NCBI GenBank assembly: GCA_963768835.1
Contig: CAVYJB010000002.1
Span: forward strand, 362,466 to 426,465
Length of the DNA stretch: 64,000 bases
Source of the DNA: an uncultured bacterium
Lineage (GTDB): Bacteria; Patescibacteriota; Minisyncoccia; UBA6257; GWB1-50-10
Direction: 5' to 3'
Made by a program: the position numbers and the translations under genes. The notes below the pieces were generated by a model. That model searched no databases and was not told where the DNA came from. It saw only the letters and a list, made by a program, of their open reading frames with translations. Positions within the stretch are counted from its first letter, which is position 1. Every line of letters starts with the position of its first letter. Positions 1 through 9,050 of the stretch are shown piece after piece.

Positions 1-267
1 GAGCGCTGCCATCGTGCCCGTGGTGAGCATTAGGTAGAATGAGTTACGGAACAAATTGTCACCAAACAGATCTCTTAATTTTCCAAACATATTTGTTGAT
101 TTCCTTGGTCTGGTTTGTGCGTACGAGATATGAATTCTAACAGTATATATAGAACGATATGATAATTACAACATCTATTAGAACCATGGGGATTGACTAA
201 GGGTATTTATCGGTTAATTATATATACTATGTTCAGGATGGTACGGTACACTGTGGCTCAGGCATAG

Positions 268-1599
268 ATGGAGAAGCATGCGGCGCATAAACAGGGTCAG
301 AAGACGCACGCAAAGCGTGCGCTGTTTTTGTTATGCCCGCTACTTGTTTTAGCAGGATTGGTATTTCTAGTATTCTCAAGGTCATCTATGCCTACATTCC
401 TGCATCCTCCGATTAATGTAAATAAACCCACTGCACCAGTTGTATCAAGTAGCGTTTTTGAAGGTAGCACATCGCCAGCCGACGAATCAACAATTACAAC
501 CCCGTCAGCCGATGACGAGTTGGCTCCTCCTCCTGCCTCTCCCGCCATGGTCTCCGCGCAAAGTAAGCTCGCGTATAAATTCGGTGTGTCGTTTGGGGAC
601 GCGTTAGTTGATCTTACTGCCACCGAGATTGGCAAGCGCCTCGACGACCTCGTTCTTCTCGGGCTCGGCTGGATACGGTTCGATATGGCATGGAACGACG
701 TCCAGCCGGATAATAGCACGAGTTATAACTGGTCAAACCTCGACCGTATCGTGGCCGCGGCGGATACCCGCCACATCAAGATGCTTCCGGTCCTTACCTA
801 CACTCCGCGATGGGCGCGTATCTCCGGGTGTTCTTCTAGTAATAATGGTAAATGCGCTCCTGCTGACCCGGCTCTTTTTGCTACCTTCGTTCAGGTTGCA
901 GTCAAGCGTTACGCCACACGGGGTATCTCCACGTGGGAGATATGGAATGAACCGAACCTAGAAGCGTTTTGGAAGCCTGCCCCAAACCCAGTGGAGTATG
1001 CGACGCTTCTCAAGGCTACGTACGGTGCCATTAAATCCCAAGAACCGAATGCCATCGTCGTCACTGGCGGTATGGGGCCGGCCGCCACAAAAAATGGTGA
1101 CATCGCGCCGCTTGAGTTTCTTGCGGAACTCTACCATGACGGAGCGGGGGGCTACTTCGATGCGGTTGGATTTCATCCCTACTCATATCCCGCCATGCCC
1201 TCATATGTACAGTCATGGAATGCATGGTCCCAGATGTCCGACACGAATCCTAGCTTGCGAAGTATTATGACGATGAACGGCGATGCGGGTAAACAAATCT
1301 GGCTTACGGAGTACGGCGCTCCTACTGGCGGCCCGGGATCCATTGAGACCTCAAGCAACGACAGGTCCTTTACCGGGGATCCGCGGTATGTGACCGAAGG
1401 ATTGCAAGCGGAGATGCTTACTGATGCAGTTAAGCTTACTGAGAGATATTCATGGGCCGGGCCGCTCTTTTGGTACAGCTATCAGGATTTGGGGACTTCA
1501 AATAATACCGCTGAGAACTTTTTTGGGCTCATCCGTTTCGATGGCAGTTTAAAACCGGCGTATAATACTCTAAAGCAATTACTCTCTGGTACGCAATGA
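268..1599 (+). CDS. membrane-anchored/secreted glycoside hydrolase, GH5-like (clan GH-A TIM barrel)
   Basis: N-terminal hydrophobic helix. WEIWNEPN (acid/base Glu) and TEYGAPTGGPG (nucleophile Glu) motifs. C-terminal LFWYSYQDLGTSN...ENFFGLIRFDGSLKPAY. Clear paralog of the catalytic domain in 3313..5976. Confidence 0.7.
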   Translation: MEKHAAHKQGQKTHAKRALFLLCPLLVLAGLVFLVFSRSSMPTFLHPPINVNKPTAPVVSSSVFEGSTSPADESTITTPSADDELAPPPASPAMVSAQSKLAYKFGVSFGDALVDLTATEIGKRLDDLVLLGLGWIRFDMAWNDVQPDNSTSYNWSNLDRIVAAADTRHIKMLPVLTYTPRWARISGCSSSNNGKCAPADPALFATFVQVAVKRYATRGISTWEIWNEPNLEAFWKPAPNPVEYATLLKATYGAIKSQEPNAIVVTGGMGPAATKNGDIAPLEFLAELYHDGAGGYFDAVGFHPYSYPAMPSYVQSWNAWSQMSDTNPSLRSIMTMNGDAGKQIWLTEYGAPTGGPGSIETSSNDRSFTGDPRYVTEGLQAEMLTDAVKLTERYSWAGPLFWYSYQDLGTSNNTAENFFGLIRFDGSLKPAYNTLKQLLSGTQ

Positions 1600-1618
1600 T
1601 ACGCCAACTTATATTTGT

Positions 1619-2242
1619 ATGAAAATATTGGGGCGAGGATGGCAATATACAGCCTATGAAATCGGGAATGGGAGGGTATTGAAGAAATTTAATACCCGAT
1701 TGGTTGCATACTGCATGATGTTGCATGATTGTTTCCCGTATGTAAAAAATCCTATGTGGAGATTTCCTGAGTATTATGCGCAAAGCAAGCGGGAAATAGT
1801 CAACTCGATGAAAATCATCCCCCATGCTACCCTTGAAGGCTGGATGTTAGGGAACCCGCGCATACTTACTGATTGTGATTATGAGCAGGATGCGCTTATG
1901 TCGCTACGCAAACATTTTAAGCATGCGACGGAAGAGGAGGGAAAGACAATCATTAACGCTTTTGTTCATTTTAATAAGACGCTTATCGCACATTCACTCG
2001 TTGACAGAAATTTCAATATCACCGACAACTTCGCCATGAATACAGAAGGAAAGATTGTGCTGATGGATTTGGGTGAGCTCTACTCCGACCCTGAGCAGAT
2101 TCGATTGTATCTTGTGTTGCGCCCATGGGCTGTATGGGACATCACGCATACCTTGCCCGAGGACCTCCGTGAATACTTTGTTCGGGCGATGGATGCGGCT
2201 TTTGCACCCACGTCCACGGATATAGGGCACGCTCAAAGCTAG
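1619..2242 (+). CDS. hypothetical protein in a low-GC island, possibly an atypical kinase-like fold
   Basis: Complete ORF. GC visibly lower than its neighbours. Gly-rich YEIGNGRV segment and a DLG motif are weakly reminiscent of small-molecule kinase folds. Sits between the GH gene and a GH remnant. Confidence 0.35.
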   Translation: MKILGRGWQYTAYEIGNGRVLKKFNTRLVAYCMMLHDCFPYVKNPMWRFPEYYAQSKREIVNSMKIIPHATLEGWMLGNPRILTDCDYEQDALMSLRKHFKHATEEEGKTIINAFVHFNKTLIAHSLVDRNFNITDNFAMNTEGKIVLMDLGELYSDPEQIRLYLVLRPWAVWDITHTLPEDLREYFVRAMDAAFAPTSTDIGHAQS

Positions 2243-2262
2243 AATCATATCAGGGTGCCATC

Positions 2263-2428
2263 ACGAATATTTGCAGGGCGTCCTGGGCCGGGCTGCTCCT
2301 TTTCTAGAACCACCGTGATATCGGTACTGTGACGATCACCAATGAGAACCTCTTCGGCGTTGTCCGCTATGATGGCATGGATAAGCCCGCCTATGCGATC
2401 CTCCAAACCTTGCTTTCCTCAAACTAAG
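2263..2428 (+). pseudogene. decayed C-terminal remnant of a third GH5-like paralog
   Basis: Frame 1 reads ..SWAGLLLF*NHRDIGTVTITNENLFGVVRYDGMDKPAYAILQTLLSSN*. This aligns to YSWAGPLFWYSYQDLGTSN..ENFFGLIRFDGSLKPAYNTLKQLL of the intact copies. There is an in-frame TAG where Trp (TGG) is expected. Confidence 0.55.
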
Positions 2429-2459
2429 ATTCAATACTTAACTTAATTTACCAACAACA

Positions 2460-2894
2460 ATGAAAACACTACGCGCGCTTTCGCTCACATTTTTTATCTT
2501 CGGTCTCCTTGGGTGGGTCTACATCGCCGGGAGCGCTGTGCTTCGTCCGGATAATCTCGACGAGCCGCTCACACACTTTCTTCCGTGGTTGCGCGCAGAT
2601 ACCTCCGGCGCCGCCTGCTTTGTCCTCTTCCTCCTCGCATTCTTTGTCTGGAACATTCTGCGTGATGAAAATCGGCGTATGAGGTCTCTGCGCTCATTAT
2701 CTCTGACGTTAGCTGTCCTTGGTTTTTCTGGCTGGGTCTATATCGCCGGGAACGCCATCTCGCACCCCGAAACACTTTCCCTTCCGCTTACGCACTTCTT
2801 GGACTTTCCCCGTGAGGATACCTTTGGTGCCGCCTGCTTTGCAATCTCATTTATCTCATTCTTTGTCTGGAATCTCCTTCGGGAAGAAAAATAA
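2460..2894 (+). CDS. small membrane protein built from an internal tandem duplication
   Basis: Residues 5-72 and 78-144 are two ~67-aa repeats (LSLTFFIFGLLGWVYIAGSAV..THFLPW..GAACF..FFVWNILRDE vs LSLTLAVLGFSGWVYIAGNAI..THFLDF..GAACF..FFVWNLLREE). Each repeat has two TM helices. Confidence 0.5.
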   Translation: MKTLRALSLTFFIFGLLGWVYIAGSAVLRPDNLDEPLTHFLPWLRADTSGAACFVLFLLAFFVWNILRDENRRMRSLRSLSLTLAVLGFSGWVYIAGNAISHPETLSLPLTHFLDFPREDTFGAACFAISFISFFVWNLLREEK

Positions 2895-3312
2895 TACCTT
2901 TTAGCTCCCACCGTCGGCTCATTCGAGTGGAATCCTCGCGTAGCTTGCTCCGTAAGGCGCTGCAATAAAAGGTTTGTGGTGTATGGGACGTAGAGGCCCG
3001 CGATGCGCAGGCCTCGCCATACTGTTGCGTAAGGCCGATCAGTTCGTGGTAACATTACGGTTTGTCCATGAACATATCCAATGTTGGTTCTTTTGGTCGG
3101 TTCGCTCTAGAGAGTCCCGGGGGATCCCGAATGATTTTCTTAATTAATATGCCTAGCGGTTCCAGGCGCATGCGGCGCTACACAGTGCATACGACACCGT
3201 GGAATTCTTTCGGTATAGTTATATAAAATGAAGCACGAAGCGTGTAGCAGGCAGCACTTGAAGCAAGAATGATGGGCTATATGTTACGTGGTGCACGATA
3301 TGGGTAGGTGCA

Positions 3313-5976
3313 ATGAAAAAGAAACACATTATCATCGTTAGCGTCGTCGCTGTGCTTCTCTTCGGCATGGTGGGGTTTCTGCGGACCGACTCCTCGGCGC
3401 GGAACACCCTTCGCGGCCTCGGGATGCTCCGGAGCAGGGGACTCGCGCAGCTCCTGGACCTTATCTCAGGCACCTCTACGTCTCCGGTTGAAACTACTTC
3501 GAATCCGCCCGAGAGCACCAGCACCTCCCCGACGCCGCCGCCACTGCCTACTGTCACGCTCCAGGCCGTCTCGACCACTATCACCGCCTCGAGCTCCACC
3601 CTGCTCCAGTGGTCCTCCACGGACGCGGATGCCTGTACGGCCTCGGGCGGGTGGAGCGGACCTGAAGCCACCTCGGGTACCGCGACGAGCTGGGCTCTCG
3701 CGACTGACACCCTTTTCTCCCTCGCCTGCACGAACGTGACGGGGAGCGCAACCTCCTCCGTCACGGTGGCCGTGGTTCCGCCGCCTGACACCACTCCGCC
3801 TACCGTCTTCTTCACAAGTCCCGTGGACGGGGCCAGCGTCTCCGGGACCGTCACGGTTGCCGCGAACGCCTCCGATAACGTGGGAGTGGCAGGAGTGCGG
3901 TTTACCCTGGACGCCGTGCCGCTCGGACCCGAGATTATCGCGACGACCTATGCGATGCAATGGGACACGGCGTCCACGACGAATGGTTCTCACACACTCG
4001 AAGCGATTGCGCGCGACGCGGCGGCGAACACGGCCTCTGCCACACTCACGGTGGCGGTCCTGAACGCTATCCCAAATACTTCAGTAGTTGTTCCGCCAAC
4101 CCTCGCAACACCCCCCTTCGGCATATCCTTTGCCGATTCTCTGCCTGGCCTTTCGGCGAACGCGCTTGGAGACCAACTCAATGCCGAGGTCGCGCTAGGG
4201 GCAAGGTGGGCGCGCATCGACATGGCCTGGAGCGACGTCCAGCCGATCTCGAGTACGACTTTCAACTGGGTAGATCTTGACCGGGTTGTGGCCGTAGCAC
4301 GGGCACGCAACATCCAGCTACTTCCCATGCTCGGCTACACACCCGCATGGGCGCGCCCCGCAGGGTGCACGGTTGAGACCTGCGCTCCCGCCAGCCCGAA
4401 TGCCTTCGCGGTTTTCGTGAAAGCGGCTGTTGCCCGCTACGCGCCCCAGGGCATCTTCGCGTGGGAGATCTGGAACGAGCCGAACATCACGGGTTTCTGG
4501 CAGCCCGCGCCGAGCCCGACGAACTACGTCGCGCTTCTCAAGGCGGCCTATGCCGCCATCAAGGCGCAGGAGCCCGCCTCCATCGTGATTTCGGGCGGTA
4601 TGGCGCCCGCGGCGACCGCAGGCTCGGATTTTTCGCCTATCGATTTCCTTACGCAGATATATCAGCAGGGCGCGGAACCGTACTTCGACGCCGTAGGGTT
4701 CCATCCGTACTCCTATCCCGCGATGCCGTCCTATGCAGTTTCATGGAACGCTTGGACGCAGATGTCGGCTACCACGCCGACGAGCCTCCGCAGCATCATG
4801 ATGGCGAACGGGGATTCTGGGAAAAACATTTGGATGACCGAGTACGGCGCGCCGACGGGAGGGCCCGGGGCGCTTGAATCCTCCGCCACAGACACACAGT
4901 TCACCGGGGCTCCCGATCACGTCACGGAAGCGCTCCAGGCGCAGATACTCTCAAGCGCCGTTGCGCTCGCGAGCGGATATTCTTGGGCGGGTCCGCTATT
5001 CTGGTACAGCTATCAGGATTTAGGGACTTCAAACACCACCAACGAGAACTTCTTTGGTATTCTCCGCTTTGATGGAAGTCAGAAGCCTGCATACGCCGCG
5101 ATGAAGCAGGCCTTCACGGGCACCGGCGGGGGAACAAGCGGAGGAACGACGACGAGTACTAGCACGAGCACTCCCTCGGGTGGAGGTGGAACTTCCACGA
5201 GCACGGCAACTTCGACACCTCCCAAGCTCGGTGGGAGTCAAACCTCAACATCCACGAGCACCTCCACGCTTCCTAAGGTGGGCGGGGGACAAACCTCAAC
5301 ATCTACAACGACCTCGACACTCTCACAGACGGCTACCAGCACCACAACCTCAACTCCGTTAACAGTTTCGGCCGTGCCGACCATCCTCGCATCCGGGGGC
5401 GGAGGAGGTGGAGGCGGAGGTGGAGGCGGCGGAGGAGGAGGCGGTATTCCTCTTATCCCGGCATCCACACCTCCAAATTCGGCTCTCAGCCCCAGTACGG
5501 CTGTTACGCTCCCTGCCACAGCGAACACGGGAACTTCAAACGCACCCGGAGGCGGTGGAGAAGGTGGTATTCCCGCACTCGCGGCCGGCGCTGTACTCGC
5601 CCCCGGCATACGCAGCACCAGCGTAGCAACCCTCCAGACCATGCTCACAGAGGATCCTACCTTGCTCCCCAAACGTTTCATCACAGGGTACTACGGAGCG
5701 GCGACGACTTGGGCTGTGGCACAGTTCCAGACGCGCTATGCGGTCCCGCTTTCTGCCGCGACCGGCGATTCCTCAGGCGTCGTGGGCAGCGTCACGCTTA
5801 TGAAACTAGATGAAGTCTTCGCACCGGAGACCTCAACCACGCCGACGTCCCCGTCCGCACCCCCAGCGGCCACCCTCCCCCCCGAGGTTCGAAGCGCGAT
5901 TACCACTAAGATTAATCTCCTTCTTCAGCTCGTGAACCTGCTCTACGCGCAGTTGCGACTCCTTACGGGCCACTGA
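3313..5976 (+). CDS. secreted multidomain hydrolase: signal peptide, Ig-like domain, GH5-like catalytic domain, Thr/Ser/poly-Gly linker, peptidoglycan-binding domain
   Basis: N-terminal signal/TM helix. Big/Ig-like segment (VTVAANASDNVGVAGVRFTLD). Catalytic core WEIWNEPN / TEYGAPTGGPG paralogous to 268..1599. TSTSTS and G17 low-complexity linker. C-terminal PG_binding_1-like motif (YYGAATTWAVAQFQTRY). Confidence 0.7.
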   Translation: MKKKHIIIVSVVAVLLFGMVGFLRTDSSARNTLRGLGMLRSRGLAQLLDLISGTSTSPVETTSNPPESTSTSPTPPPLPTVTLQAVSTTITASSSTLLQWSSTDADACTASGGWSGPEATSGTATSWALATDTLFSLACTNVTGSATSSVTVAVVPPPDTTPPTVFFTSPVDGASVSGTVTVAANASDNVGVAGVRFTLDAVPLGPEIIATTYAMQWDTASTTNGSHTLEAIARDAAANTASATLTVAVLNAIPNTSVVVPPTLATPPFGISFADSLPGLSANALGDQLNAEVALGARWARIDMAWSDVQPISSTTFNWVDLDRVVAVARARNIQLLPMLGYTPAWARPAGCTVETCAPASPNAFAVFVKAAVARYAPQGIFAWEIWNEPNITGFWQPAPSPTNYVALLKAAYAAIKAQEPASIVISGGMAPAATAGSDFSPIDFLTQIYQQGAEPYFDAVGFHPYSYPAMPSYAVSWNAWTQMSATTPTSLRSIMMANGDSGKNIWMTEYGAPTGGPGALESSATDTQFTGAPDHVTEALQAQILSSAVALASGYSWAGPLFWYSYQDLGTSNTTNENFFGILRFDGSQKPAYAAMKQAFTGTGGGTSGGTTTSTSTSTPSGGGGTSTSTATSTPPKLGGSQTSTSTSTSTLPKVGGGQTSTSTTTSTLSQTATSTTTSTPLTVSAVPTILASGGGGGGGGGGGGGGGGGIPLIPASTPPNSALSPSTAVTLPATANTGTSNAPGGGGEGGIPALAAGAVLAPGIRSTSVATLQTMLTEDPTLLPKRFITGYYGAATTWAVAQFQTRYAVPLSAATGDSSGVVGSVTLMKLDEVFAPETSTTPTSPSAPPAATLPPEVRSAITTKINLLLQLVNLLYAQLRLLTGH
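5395..5448 (+). repeat. (GGN)n simple-sequence tract encoding G17
   Basis: ggcggaggaggtggaggcggaggtggaggcggcggaggaggaggcggt inside 3313..5976. Confidence 0.85.
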
Positions 5977-6076
5977 CGCTGCTGGGATAGGGGACAGGGC
6001 CAATTGAGAAGTGGGTCAAGAGCCACTCGTTCATCGGTGTGGCCCTTTCATTTGCACTCGGCGCGCCTCGAAGATA

Positions 6077-6105
6077 TTGACGAATTATAGATAATATACT
6101 ATACT
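6077..6105 (+). promoter_or_regulatory. sigma70-type promoter TTGACG-N17-TATACT for 6167..7999
   Basis: Direct sequence match in an AT-rich stretch upstream. Confidence 0.5.
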
Positions 6106-6166
6106 ATGCCCAGCTTTTTCACAGTAGGTAATCCACATCCACAACAACCTGAAGGGAGCACCCATC

Positions 6167-7999: not shown

Positions 8000-8047
8000 G
8001 ATAGGGGACCGTAGTGTACGTGTCCCATGAAACAAAGGGCGTGAGTC

Positions 8048-8080
8048 TATGACTTACGCCCTTTTTATTTACATCGGATA
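8048..8080 (+). terminator. intrinsic terminator (GC hairpin + TTTTTATTT)
   Basis: gggcgtgagtctatgacttacgccc tttttattt. Confidence 0.65.
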
Positions 8081-8114
8081 AAGCCTGCGCTCTCCGAACG
8101 AGGACCCTGAAACA

Positions 8115-8144
8115 TTGACAATATTGCATTATATATGCTATAAT
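8115..8144 (+). promoter_or_regulatory. consensus promoter TTGACA-N18-TATAAT (module copy 1)
   Basis: ttgacaatattgcattatatatgctataat, followed by a conserved leader to ATG 8196. Confidence 0.7.
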
Positions 8145-8195
8145 AGAGTTAGCAAGAAACTCACGTTTTCCCTCACAACTTCAAAAGGCACATCC

Positions 8196-9050
8196 ATGAA
8201 GATTATTGCATCTCCATCGACCGTTGCTGCGATTGAGCGGTATTTCAAATACCTCGTTCCTCCTGAATCCTTCGACGATCTCGTGATTGTCATCGCGGAG
8301 TTCGTGGAAGGCAATGGGTACTATTCCGATCTTCACGGGATCGACCAGGTGAAGCGCTACGCCGACGACCCGAAACTTTTCGTGGTTCTCATGAGCTTCT
8401 TGAATGCGGAGGCAATCGCGGAGCGGGGGCCGGAATTTGCGGGCCTTCTGAGTTATGCAAACGTCGCGTTTGCGCGTCTCCCGGACGTGGGAGAAGCAGT
8501 GCGCGTGTATCGTGAACTGAAGTCAGGAAGCAAGAAGGAGGATGCGTTGGGGAAGAGGCTGTTCGAGATCGAAAACATCGACCGGACGGTATCTATTCTC
8601 CGGCACGACCTCCATTACGCCGAGGAGAATGCCAAGAAGATGCAGAGCTGGCTTACGCAGGCTCGCGAAGCGGGTTTCAGCGGCTCTCCCCAGGAGATCG
8701 TCGCCGCCGTGCGCAACTGGAAGCGCGCCACCGCAGGAAAGTGCGAAGGGCAGTATTTCGGAGGGCTCTTCGTGGATTTCCAGGGAACCCTCGTGAAGGA
8801 TGGCGTGGTGCAGAAGGCGGTTCTGGAGAAGGTCCGTCGGCTTGCCGCGGGGCGCTCCATCACGGTCATCACAGACAGCGATCTCCAGGAGGTTCGGAAA
8901 ACCCTGGCGGGGCTGGGCTTGCCCGTGGCGTCAAAGTTTGACCTCAAGGGCGCCGAGCTCGAAACTGTCGTTGATGATCTTTCGCAGAAGGAGTTCCGCG
9001 CGACCTACGGGATCGTTCCTCGGCAGTTCATCCGCGTCGATGCGCTATAA
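8196..9050 (+). CDS. hypothetical protein (C-terminal DFQGTL HAD-motif-I-like segment, second Asp replaced)
   Basis: ORF downstream of a consensus promoter and a conserved leader. Terminator at 8048..8080 closes the upstream gene and another follows this one. Confidence 0.45.
   Translation: MKIIASPSTVAAIERYFKYLVPPESFDDLVIVIAEFVEGNGYYSDLHGIDQVKRYADDPKLFVVLMSFLNAEAIAERGPEFAGLLSYANVAFARLPDVGEAVRVYRELKSGSKKEDALGKRLFEIENIDRTVSILRHDLHYAEENAKKMQSWLTQAREAGFSGSPQEIVAAVRNWKRATAGKCEGQYFGGLFVDFQGTLVKDGVVQKAVLEKVRRLAAGRSITVITDSDLQEVRKTLAGLGLPVASKFDLKGAELETVVDDLSQKEFRATYGIVPRQFIRVDAL

Follow-up and report, generated by a model that had tools for sequence, protein, structure and literature searches.

PslG-like hydrolase paralogs beside a conserved polysaccharide cluster in a Patescibacteria genome

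What do two paralogous glycoside hydrolases cut when they are encoded within a few kilobases of each other in an uncultured bacterium of the Candidate Phyla Radiation (CPR, or Patescibacteria)? We addressed this question for a locus at the left end of a 64,000-nucleotide stretch of contig CAVYJB010000002.1, here called the window, to which all plain coordinates refer. Four open reading frames (ORFs) are called at the locus: the hydrolases GH1 (443 aa) and GH2 (887 aa) and, between them, K207 (207 aa) and M144 (144 aa) (Table 1). An initial annotation, made from the sequence alone, had described a GH5-like hydrolase family with a decayed third copy, an inserted ORF and a cell-wall glycan as the probable target. 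We find instead a GH39/PslG-like family whose first member lies beside a conserved polysaccharide-synthesis cluster, and consider it reasonably probable that GH1 and GH2 trim the cell's own surface polysaccharide, GH1 as the dedicated hydrolase of the cluster and GH2 as a wall-tethered enzyme. The locus is an ordinary paralog family with one pseudogene and nothing in it is categorically new; PslG-like hydrolases are already known from exopolysaccharide (EPS) clusters, and the Joint Genome Institute (JGI) pipeline labels many homologs 'PslG'. Its re-interpretation is useful for the reading of such genes in CPR genomes.

Family, fold and catalytic residues

Pfam profiles placed GH1 just over threshold for two families at once, GH39 (PF01229, 31.0 bits; gathering threshold, GA, 26) and Cellulase (PF00150, GH5; 29.9 bits, GA 23.5). 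GH2 scored below GA for both (19.7 and 18.8 bits, respectively), and among relatives PF00150 frequently outscores PF01229. Comparison with solved structures in the PDB revealed a consistent order. With GH1 as a single query sequence, the best match was PslG of Pseudomonas aeruginosa (E 5e-26), and other GH39 enzymes followed with weaker yet significant values. A 27-sequence family profile matched PslG at E 4e-35 and other GH39 enzymes at E 2e-24 to 2.5e-10 (GH39 xylosidases and Bacteroides 5JVK at 1e-16 to 2e-24), whereas GH5 mannanases reached only about 6e-3. The AlphaFold2 model of GH1, with a predicted local distance difference test score (pLDDT) above 90 in the catalytic core, retrieved PslG by Foldseek at E 1.3e-22 and a TM-score of 0.66; ranks 1-11 were all GH39, and members of GH5_18, GH10, the GH1 family and GH53 appeared at about 1e-11. 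By profile and fold, solved GH5 enzymes thus match 11-30 orders of magnitude more weakly than PslG.

Because PslG is the best match by sequence, profile and predicted fold, and the next matches are all GH39, the GH1/GH2 family is GH39/PslG-like rather than GH5. The earlier GH5-like label was right about the clan, GH-A, but the family is better assigned to GH39; GH5 enzymes share the catalytic geometry of the clan, and the fold is as first proposed, since GH39 and GH5 have the same (beta/alpha)8 barrel. Within GH39, the beta-xylosidases (XynB1 2BS9, 1PX8, 4EKJ) and Bacteroides 5JVK share CAZy family and clan with GH1, but the xylosidases are soluble, larger, multi-domain exo-enzymes from catabolic genomic contexts and match well only over the core N-terminal half.

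The catalytic pair is conserved. The predicted acid/base E228 (in WNEPN) and nucleophile E348 (in TEYG) of GH1 are invariant in the 27-sequence family alignment, as are their GH2 equivalents E389 and E510. They align to E165 and E276 of PslG, both of which are required for activity (PMC6813494, PMC4928890). Near its N-terminus GH1 has a transmembrane (TM) helix (aa 14-43); from there to about aa 100 runs a disordered S/T/P linker, and the catalytic (beta/alpha)8 domain occupies aa 101-443. GH1 resembles PslG (PDB 4ZN2, 5BX9) in its barrel, in the NEP acid/base and TE-x-G nucleophile glutamates, and in having the catalytic domain outside the cytoplasm on an N-terminal TM anchor, a topology that for GH1 is predicted (PMC4928890, PMC6813494). 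The public (NCBI/ENA) call of GH1 starts at Met94 and gives 350 aa, omitting the N-terminal anchor and linker (268..546). Evidence for the predicted 443-aa form comes from a Logan assembly call and from homologs whose matches span 95-100% of the long ORF.

The initial annotation had taken the catalytic cores of GH1 and GH2 for paralogs, and their alignment bears this out (63% identity over 334 aa, E 3e-157). The identity between GH1 and GH2 (62%) is about the same as that to orthologs in other genera (64%). Since their mutual divergence equals their divergence from these orthologs, the duplication is old.

The polysaccharide cluster beside GH1

The left edge of the window cuts through a flippase gene. 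We recovered its upstream context from L001, an independent assembly of the same organism that is identical to the window across 11.6 kb save for one homopolymer, with window position 1 corresponding to L001 9734. Upstream lie several GT4 glycosyltransferase genes, a Polysacc_deac_1 (CE4-type) deacetylase gene, a gene for an 800-aa DUF2206 membrane protein, a Glycos_transf_1 gene and finally the Polysacc_synt (Wzx-type) flippase gene, which is divergent from GH1. As with pslG, the gene for GH1 thus either belongs to a polysaccharide-synthesis cluster or borders on it.

Synteny analysis, in which six cluster proteins were compared by tblastn with all fetched loci, revealed that this arrangement is conserved. 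Of 13 close relatives, 12 have a divergent flippase gene directly next to the hydrolase gene or one gene away from it, and DUF2206 and GT4 genes follow past the flippase wherever the contig extends. The combination of hydrolase, Wzx, DUF2206 and GT4 within 10 kb also occurs in Ktedonobacteraceae, Streptomyces, Microlunatus and Saccharimonadales loci. The genes conserved around the hydrolase have biosynthetic functions, namely Wzx, GT4, DUF2206, a deacetylase and a pyruvyl transferase. On account of the divergent flippase at most one gene away in 12 of 13 relatives, GH1 is most likely the cluster's own processing hydrolase, and, given its conserved pairing with the Wzx/DUF2206/GT4 cluster, the likely target is the surface polysaccharide of the cell itself. 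The placement of pslG in the psl operon follows the same logic.

Hydrolases that are encoded together with synthesis genes and process the nascent polymer are also known from other EPS systems, as in BcsZ, the PelA hydrolase domain, the PgaB C-terminal domain and Sph3/Ega3. These enzymes have other folds and belong to other CAZy families than the GH39-like GH1.

Composition delimits the same unit. Across the window genes, GC at third codon positions (GC3) averages 0.68 (standard deviation 0.10), and most clear genes fall at 0.65-0.85. The six upstream cluster genes have GC3 values of 0.44-0.52, and GH1 (0.538), K207 (0.524) and M144 (0.579) continue this range, whereas GC3 is genome-typical from GH2 onward (0.69 in GH2, 0.71-0.80 in the three genes after it). 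The low-GC3 unit (0.44-0.58) is thus the whole polysaccharide island of at least 12 kb, which ends at about 2900-3300, between M144 and GH2. The relative L083 repeats the pattern, with an island GC of 0.30-0.37 against 0.47-0.48 in the flanking genes for IF-2 and RbfA. Low GC is a familiar pattern for surface-polysaccharide loci.

DUF2206 stands out among the neighbours as a multi-pass membrane protein of about 800 aa that travels with the flippase, GT4 and the PslG-like hydrolase. Homologs were found in L003-L011, L015, L019, L025, L031, L083, L090 and L092, and the association extends from CPR bacteria to Streptomyces, Microlunatus and Ktedonobacteraceae. We regard DUF2206 as a candidate for the polymerase in a polysaccharide pathway that is widespread but uncharacterised.

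GH2 architecture and the substrate of the two enzymes

Domain analysis of GH2 revealed a hydrophobic signal or anchor (aa 2-27) and an S/T/P linker, a Big_7 domain (PF17957; aa 163-231, 3799..4005; E 4e-14, 53.6-56.1 bits, GA 24.1), the catalytic domain (aa ~265-600, 4105..5112), a G/T/S-rich linker (aa ~600-765) containing a run of 17 glycines (G17, 5395..5445) built from mixed GGN codons, and a PG_binding_1 domain (PF01471; aa 769-812, 5617..5748) followed by a C-terminal amphipathic helix. All three elements that the initial annotation had read in this protein, an Ig-like domain, the G17 linker and a C-terminal PG_binding_1-like domain, are accordingly present.

The last of these required closer scrutiny. 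PG_binding_1 scored 20.1 bits on full-length GH2 (GA 23) and 24.5 bits on the isolated C-terminal 137 aa, so that the segment by itself passes the Pfam threshold. A word-indexed homolog search with the GH2 C-terminus returned nothing; an exhaustive HMMER search with the same segment returned 1,256 homologs, mostly located C-terminally in proteins of 160-2,300 aa, and 10 of the 10 best homologs were strong PF01471 proteins (65-114 bits). The presence of PG_binding_1 in GH2 is confirmed at the sequence level. The GH2 copy is a CPR-type variant: the loop preceding its last helix carries an insertion, and the domain is followed by the amphipathic helix.

The PG_binding_1 segment is a mobile module that recurs in over 1,200 proteins with widely varied architectures. 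In independent fusions in the relatives P0024 and P0094, PG_binding_1, a poly-G run and Big_7 (in P0094 also fn3) precede the same catalytic domain, so that the module is N-terminal there and C-terminal in GH2. The recurrence of a GH39-type core with PG_binding_1 and Big_7 in different orders therefore suggests functional coupling, most simply wall anchoring, and the PG_binding_1 domain of GH2 is best read as a predicted wall anchor rather than as the mark of a peptidoglycan substrate.

Two further observations concern GH2. N-terminal to Big_7, aa ~78-160 (3540..3800) form a Cys-containing, S/T-rich beta-type region ('...LLQWSSTDADACTASGGWSGPEATSG...LACTNVTG...') with no Pfam family match, which could be another small module of Ig-like or carbohydrate-binding type. 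The C7 homopolymer at 5876..5882 is C6 in L001; the resulting frame shift replaces the last ~30 aa of GH2, giving a protein that is 14 aa shorter (873 instead of 887 aa) and has an altered tail lacking the C-terminal amphipathic helix. This difference could be an assembly error or genuine population or phase variation.

Taken together, these features suggest the following model. The locus forms the right-hand edge of a conserved low-GC surface-polysaccharide island in a Paceibacteria-type CPR genome. GH1 would be the island's PslG-type retaining endo-glycanase, held by one N-terminal helix in the cytoplasmic membrane with its barrel outside the cell, where it would cut the cluster's own polymer for chain-length control, for release or to clear mis-made polymer, E228 serving as acid/base and E348 as nucleophile. 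GH2, as an old paralog outside the island, would carry the same catalyst on long flexible G/S/T linkers and Ig-like spacers; its PG_binding_1 domain would pin the enzyme non-covalently to peptidoglycan, and it would act on surface glycan within or above the wall. The third hydrolase copy is truncated and dead, and K207 and the two-TM mini-protein of which M144 is a fused form would be recurrent accessory genes of the module.

Several points weigh against this model. We infer the own-polymer substrate of GH1 and GH2 from synteny only. Identity between GH1 and PslG is just 24-25%, and the PslG alignment stops at chain residue 330 of 416, with GH1 ending 3 aa later, so that GH1 lacks the PslG C-terminal beta-sandwich, which is accessory and not part of the catalytic definition of the family. 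No Wzy polymerase or priming transferase is recognisable in the 10 kb seen, although a Wzx-type gene is present, and DUF2206 has no solved homolog and no literature in a full-text search. GH2, lying outside the island, could have a different substrate than GH1. The setting also differs from that of PslG: the host is a CPR bacterium, presumably monoderm, in which a periplasm and PslD/E-type export would be absent; its partner cluster is Wzx/DUF2206/GT4 and not psl; and here paralogs are fused to PG_binding_1 and Big_7, with a two-TM mini-protein and a predicted mini-kinase co-occurring.

CPR bacteria are often episymbionts, which makes a host-directed role possible. The hydrolases, GH2 above all, would then cut host or biofilm EPS or capsule to reach or leave the host surface, and PG_binding_1 would hold the enzyme on the wall of the symbiont or even of the host. 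The long linkers and Ig-like spacers of GH2 would suit such outward reach, its position outside the biosynthetic island and its genome-typical composition fit as well, and exogenous PslG is known to disperse biofilms (PMC4928890). The family is also very abundant, with more than 1,400 matches, and small CPR genomes often carry more than one member, several relatives having 2-3 copies per locus. We nonetheless regard this role as unlikely, given that GH1-type copies are repeatedly and tightly paired with their own flippase/GT cluster and that PG_binding_1 is a general anchoring module in these organisms.

Still less probable, in our view, is a nutritional role in which GH39/GH5-type enzymes degrade environmental hemicellulose or plant or algal glycans for carbon. 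This is the usual literature reading of GH39 genes in Parcubacteria (PMC5581439, PMC9868632), for which dbCAN GH39 calls are typical (PMC5581439), and both the dual Cellulase and GH39 Pfam matches of GH1 and the significant, though weaker, matches to GH39 beta-xylosidases agree with it. By every measure, however, the closest enzyme is the EPS-processing PslG and not an exo-xylosidase; transporter or catabolic genes are absent from the adjacent positions, the conserved neighbours being biosynthetic; and membrane or wall tethering is atypical of scavenging enzymes. The initial annotation had taken the PG_binding_1 fusion of GH2 as a pointer to a cell-wall glycan target, and many autolysins do carry PG_binding_1. 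We consider hydrolysis of the peptidoglycan backbone highly improbable: among sequence and fold matches there is no muramidase or glucosaminidase family, every match is to a clan GH-A enzyme whose substrates are neutral polysaccharides or glycosides, and GH1 and most family members have no PG-binding module at all. Peptidoglycan as substrate was rejected on fold and family grounds. Of the target first proposed, a cell-wall rather than a plant glycan, what stands is that plant digestion is unlikely, with PslG as the nearest relative and biosynthetic neighbours; peptidoglycan is not indicated, PG_binding_1 being a widespread anchor.

Companion genes, the third copy and implications for CPR hydrolases

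K207 begins 19 nt past the end of GH1 and is one of a family of ~200-aa proteins with at least 46 members, of which the few with an organism name are Paceibacterota. Its AlphaFold2 model (pLDDT 93.8) matched kinase-like folds in all top Foldseek positions (PhK, LIMK1, AceK, UbiB/COQ8A, RIO2, Bud32; E ~1e-4, TM-score 0.45-0.52), and a weak AceK profile match (E 0.14) gives the only hint at the sequence level. The family alignment revealed invariant residues K22, E89-Q90-D91, D129, N137 and D150-x-G152-E153. K207 thus resembles minimal kinase-like proteins (Bud32/KEOPS, RIO2, the AceK kinase domain, UbiB/COQ8) in a predicted fold that matches only kinases and in conserved candidate residues, namely a Lys at the beta3 position, an Asn, and a DxGE motif spaced as DFG would be (13 residues from N137 to D150). 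It differs from them in its small size, in belonging to no sequence family, in the unusual D-x7-N spacing of the catalytic loop and in the modest TM-scores. No Pfam, NCBIfam, PHROG or PADLOC family matched K207. The public annotation of K207 gives 175 aa and drops the Gly-rich loop and the conserved Lys.

The initial annotation had seen K207 as an insertion of visibly lower GC. The lower GC is real (0.455 over the whole gene, against 0.521 in GH1 and 0.624 in GH2); the extra-low total arises from codon positions 1 and 2 (GC 0.42 versus 0.51 in GH1), that is, from amino-acid composition. The insertion did not hold up: GC3 equals that of the flanks, homologs lie beside the hydrolase in six relatives (Table 1) with GC3 equal to that of their neighbours in the four measured (L083, L085, L091, L092), and neither K207 nor the remnant described below is flanked by insertion sequence (IS) elements or by direct or inverted repeats. 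A phage or defence origin likewise found no support, the PHROGs and PADLOC scans being empty. Distant K207 homologs (45-52% identity) occur away from the hydrolase in L086, L088 and L093. In L086 (Paceibacterota), the homolog at 8001-8603 lies between the genes for ArgRS and IleRS with a GC3 of 0.40 versus 0.68-0.80 in its neighbours; this copy, unlike that of the window, looks recently inserted, and the K207 family appears to be mobile.

M144 consists of two ~70-aa units fused in tandem, visible as a 219-nt direct repeat of 76% identity. Single units in relatives are 69-74 aa long and have two TM helices; their motifs are W-x-YIA and, in the inter-helix loop, HPETLSLPLTH and PREDTFG. The second half of M144 keeps HPETLSLPLTH and PREDTFG, and the first half is degenerate and has lost the motifs. 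A fused double unit with a degenerate first half is also present in L149 (~3760-4200). Single units start 8-25 nt past the end of the hydrolase match in L003, L006, L007, L011 and L083, and past the long hydrolase in L091. A rule that the mini-protein always follows the hydrolase was rejected, as a hydrolase C-terminus lies 6-50 nt upstream in only 10 of 69 testable metagenome loci. The metagenome scan points to a looser link: among the 39 loci that span at least 4 kb, 29 had hydrolase and/or polysaccharide-cluster homologs near the mini-protein. The two-TM mini-protein had no Pfam match above threshold, and M144 had no PHROG or PADLOC match.

Between K207 and M144, one frame reads '...RASWAGLLLF*NHRDIGTVTITNENLFGVVRYDGMDKPAYAILQTLLSSN*'. 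A stretch of 48 codons in it (2275..2418) aligns with GH1 residues 393-440 at 52% identity, with a tblastn E of 1.7e-10 in a search of the whole window; the decayed third copy that had been proposed therefore exists, well above chance. The 5' ~88% of this gene is gone and the last ~55 codons remain. Its in-frame TAG (2305-2307) had been ascribed to a replaced TGG. The ungapped alignment places it at the Tyr of FWYSY and not at a Trp, so that TAT/TAC->TAG would be a likelier origin than TGG->TAG.

Over its 50 residues, the remnant shares 19-26 identities with nearly all of 28 family members, including GH1 (25) and GH2 (22). Being about equally distant from all of them, it is not a recent copy of GH1 or GH2. 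At its position L085 has a full second hydrolase, whereas L147 and L152 have none, the gap from K207 to the unit there being 18-47 nt. Most simply, the ancestral order would have been hydrolase, K207, hydrolase, unit, with the 5' ~88% of the second hydrolase then deleted here and the whole of it deleted in L147 and L152; of this history only the truncation may be recent. The view of a recently rearranged locus is thus partly sustained: gene order is shuffled among relatives and one copy is truncated, but the duplication of GH1 and GH2 is old. The GC3 of the remnant (0.70 over 55 codons) is nearer to the genome norm and to GH2 than to GH1 and K207 (0.52-0.54), by about 2.4 standard errors. These 55 codons are the sole hint of a cassette replacement, in which an incoming low-GC island recombined inside a resident hydrolase gene and left its 3' end, and we do not claim such an event.

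Table 1. Features of the locus and their counterparts in related loci (plain coordinates refer to the window; GH, hydrolase; unit, two-TM mini-protein)
Feature	Position or locus	Strand	Basis or remark
Flippase 5' end (Wzx-type, Polysacc_synt)	1..90	-	First 30 codons; translation begins MFGKLRDLF...
AT-rich divergent intergenic/promoter region, flippase versus GH1	91..267		GC 0.356; 177 bp
GH1, predicted membrane-anchored PslG-like GH39 hydrolase	268..1599	+	Pfam, PslG matches, fold
K207, ~200-aa predicted cytoplasmic protein, predicted miniature kinase-like fold	1619..2242	+	46 homologs, AlphaFold2/Foldseek
Third GH copy remnant (pseudogene), last ~55 codons	2260..2427	+	tblastn, frame translation
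M144, in-frame fusion of two ~70-aa two-TM units, 4 TM in total	2460..2894	+	Direct repeat, alignment, TM prediction
Intergenic region, compositional boundary	2895..3312		GC3 tables
GH2, 887-aa predicted wall-tethered paralog	3313..5976	+	Domain scans
C7 homopolymer inside GH2	5876..5882	+	C6 in independent assembly L001
Wzx-type flippase	L001 8546-9823	-	Last gene of upstream cluster, divergent from GH1
DUF2206	L001 5031-7433		Upstream of window
Flippase directly adjacent to GH, divergent	L003, L004, L005, L006, L007, L010, L011, L018, L085
Flippase one gene from GH	L083, L090, L092
Flippase 7 kb from GH	L009
K207 homologs beside GH	L083 7776-8369; L085 2071-2670; L091 3160-3759; L092 5603-6214; L147 3378-3983; L152 1677-2273
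Single two-TM units	L003 11060-11272; L006 11057-11272; L007 11250-11474; L011 11011-11226; L083 9872-10081; L091 1778-2002
Gene order Wzx(-) / K207 / GH	L083, L092
Gene order GH / K207 / GH	L085
Gene order GH(long) / unit / GH / K207	L091
Gene order GH / K207 / unit	L147, L152

In the flanks, promoter-like sites lie between the flippase and GH1 at 137-166 and 193-221 (+) and at 171-142 (-), and ahead of GH2 at 3191-3219 (+); all are consensus matches only. Three segments first described as AT-rich islands, 1-267, 3060-3312 and 6060-6110, do have lower GC (0.39, 0.47 and 0.39) and are simply intergenic or promoter regions, apart from the 5' end of the flippase gene in the first. No tRNA genes or Rfam families were found anywhere in the window, and an NCBIfam scan gave no match for any of six ORFs tested. 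Downstream of GH2, 6167..~13500 holds six consecutive plus-strand genes with products of 610, 284, 287, 591, 126 and 150 aa. None has a recorded Pfam match, and the four also scanned with PHROG and PADLOC had no match there; the 610-aa product has at least three N-terminal TM segments. After this run come a gene with a weak Zn-ribbon match only and then ordinary pyrF/pyrE-like genes.

A bolder reading of the companion genes, which we offer as doubtful, is that the PslG-like hydrolase, the two-TM mini-protein and K207 form an undescribed CPR-specific control module for the Wzx/DUF2206/GT4 polysaccharide. The mini-protein would be a membrane partner or regulator of the hydrolase, and K207 would represent a new minimal kinase family, with the polymer, a lipid-linked intermediate or a protein of the pathway as its phosphorylation target. 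Changes in hydrolase copy number, shuffling and pseudogenisation would then vary the surface coat of the episymbiont.

In a full-text literature search, PslG together with Patescibacteria turned up only in a glacier cryoconite microbiome survey. GH39 is among the few glycoside hydrolases of Parcubacteria-type CPR genomes, where it has been counted as evidence of hemicellulose degradation (PMC5581439, PMC9868632). The three conserved, uncharacterised partners, namely DUF2206, the two-TM mini-protein and the mini kinase-fold protein, are tractable targets for study. Judging from the conserved head-to-head pairing with flippase and glycosyltransferase genes and from PslG being the closest characterised enzyme, many CPR GH39 enzymes may instead maintain the cell's own surface polysaccharide, a structure that is probably important for contact between episymbiont and host. 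If this is true, inferences on carbon cycling drawn from CPR genomes would change.

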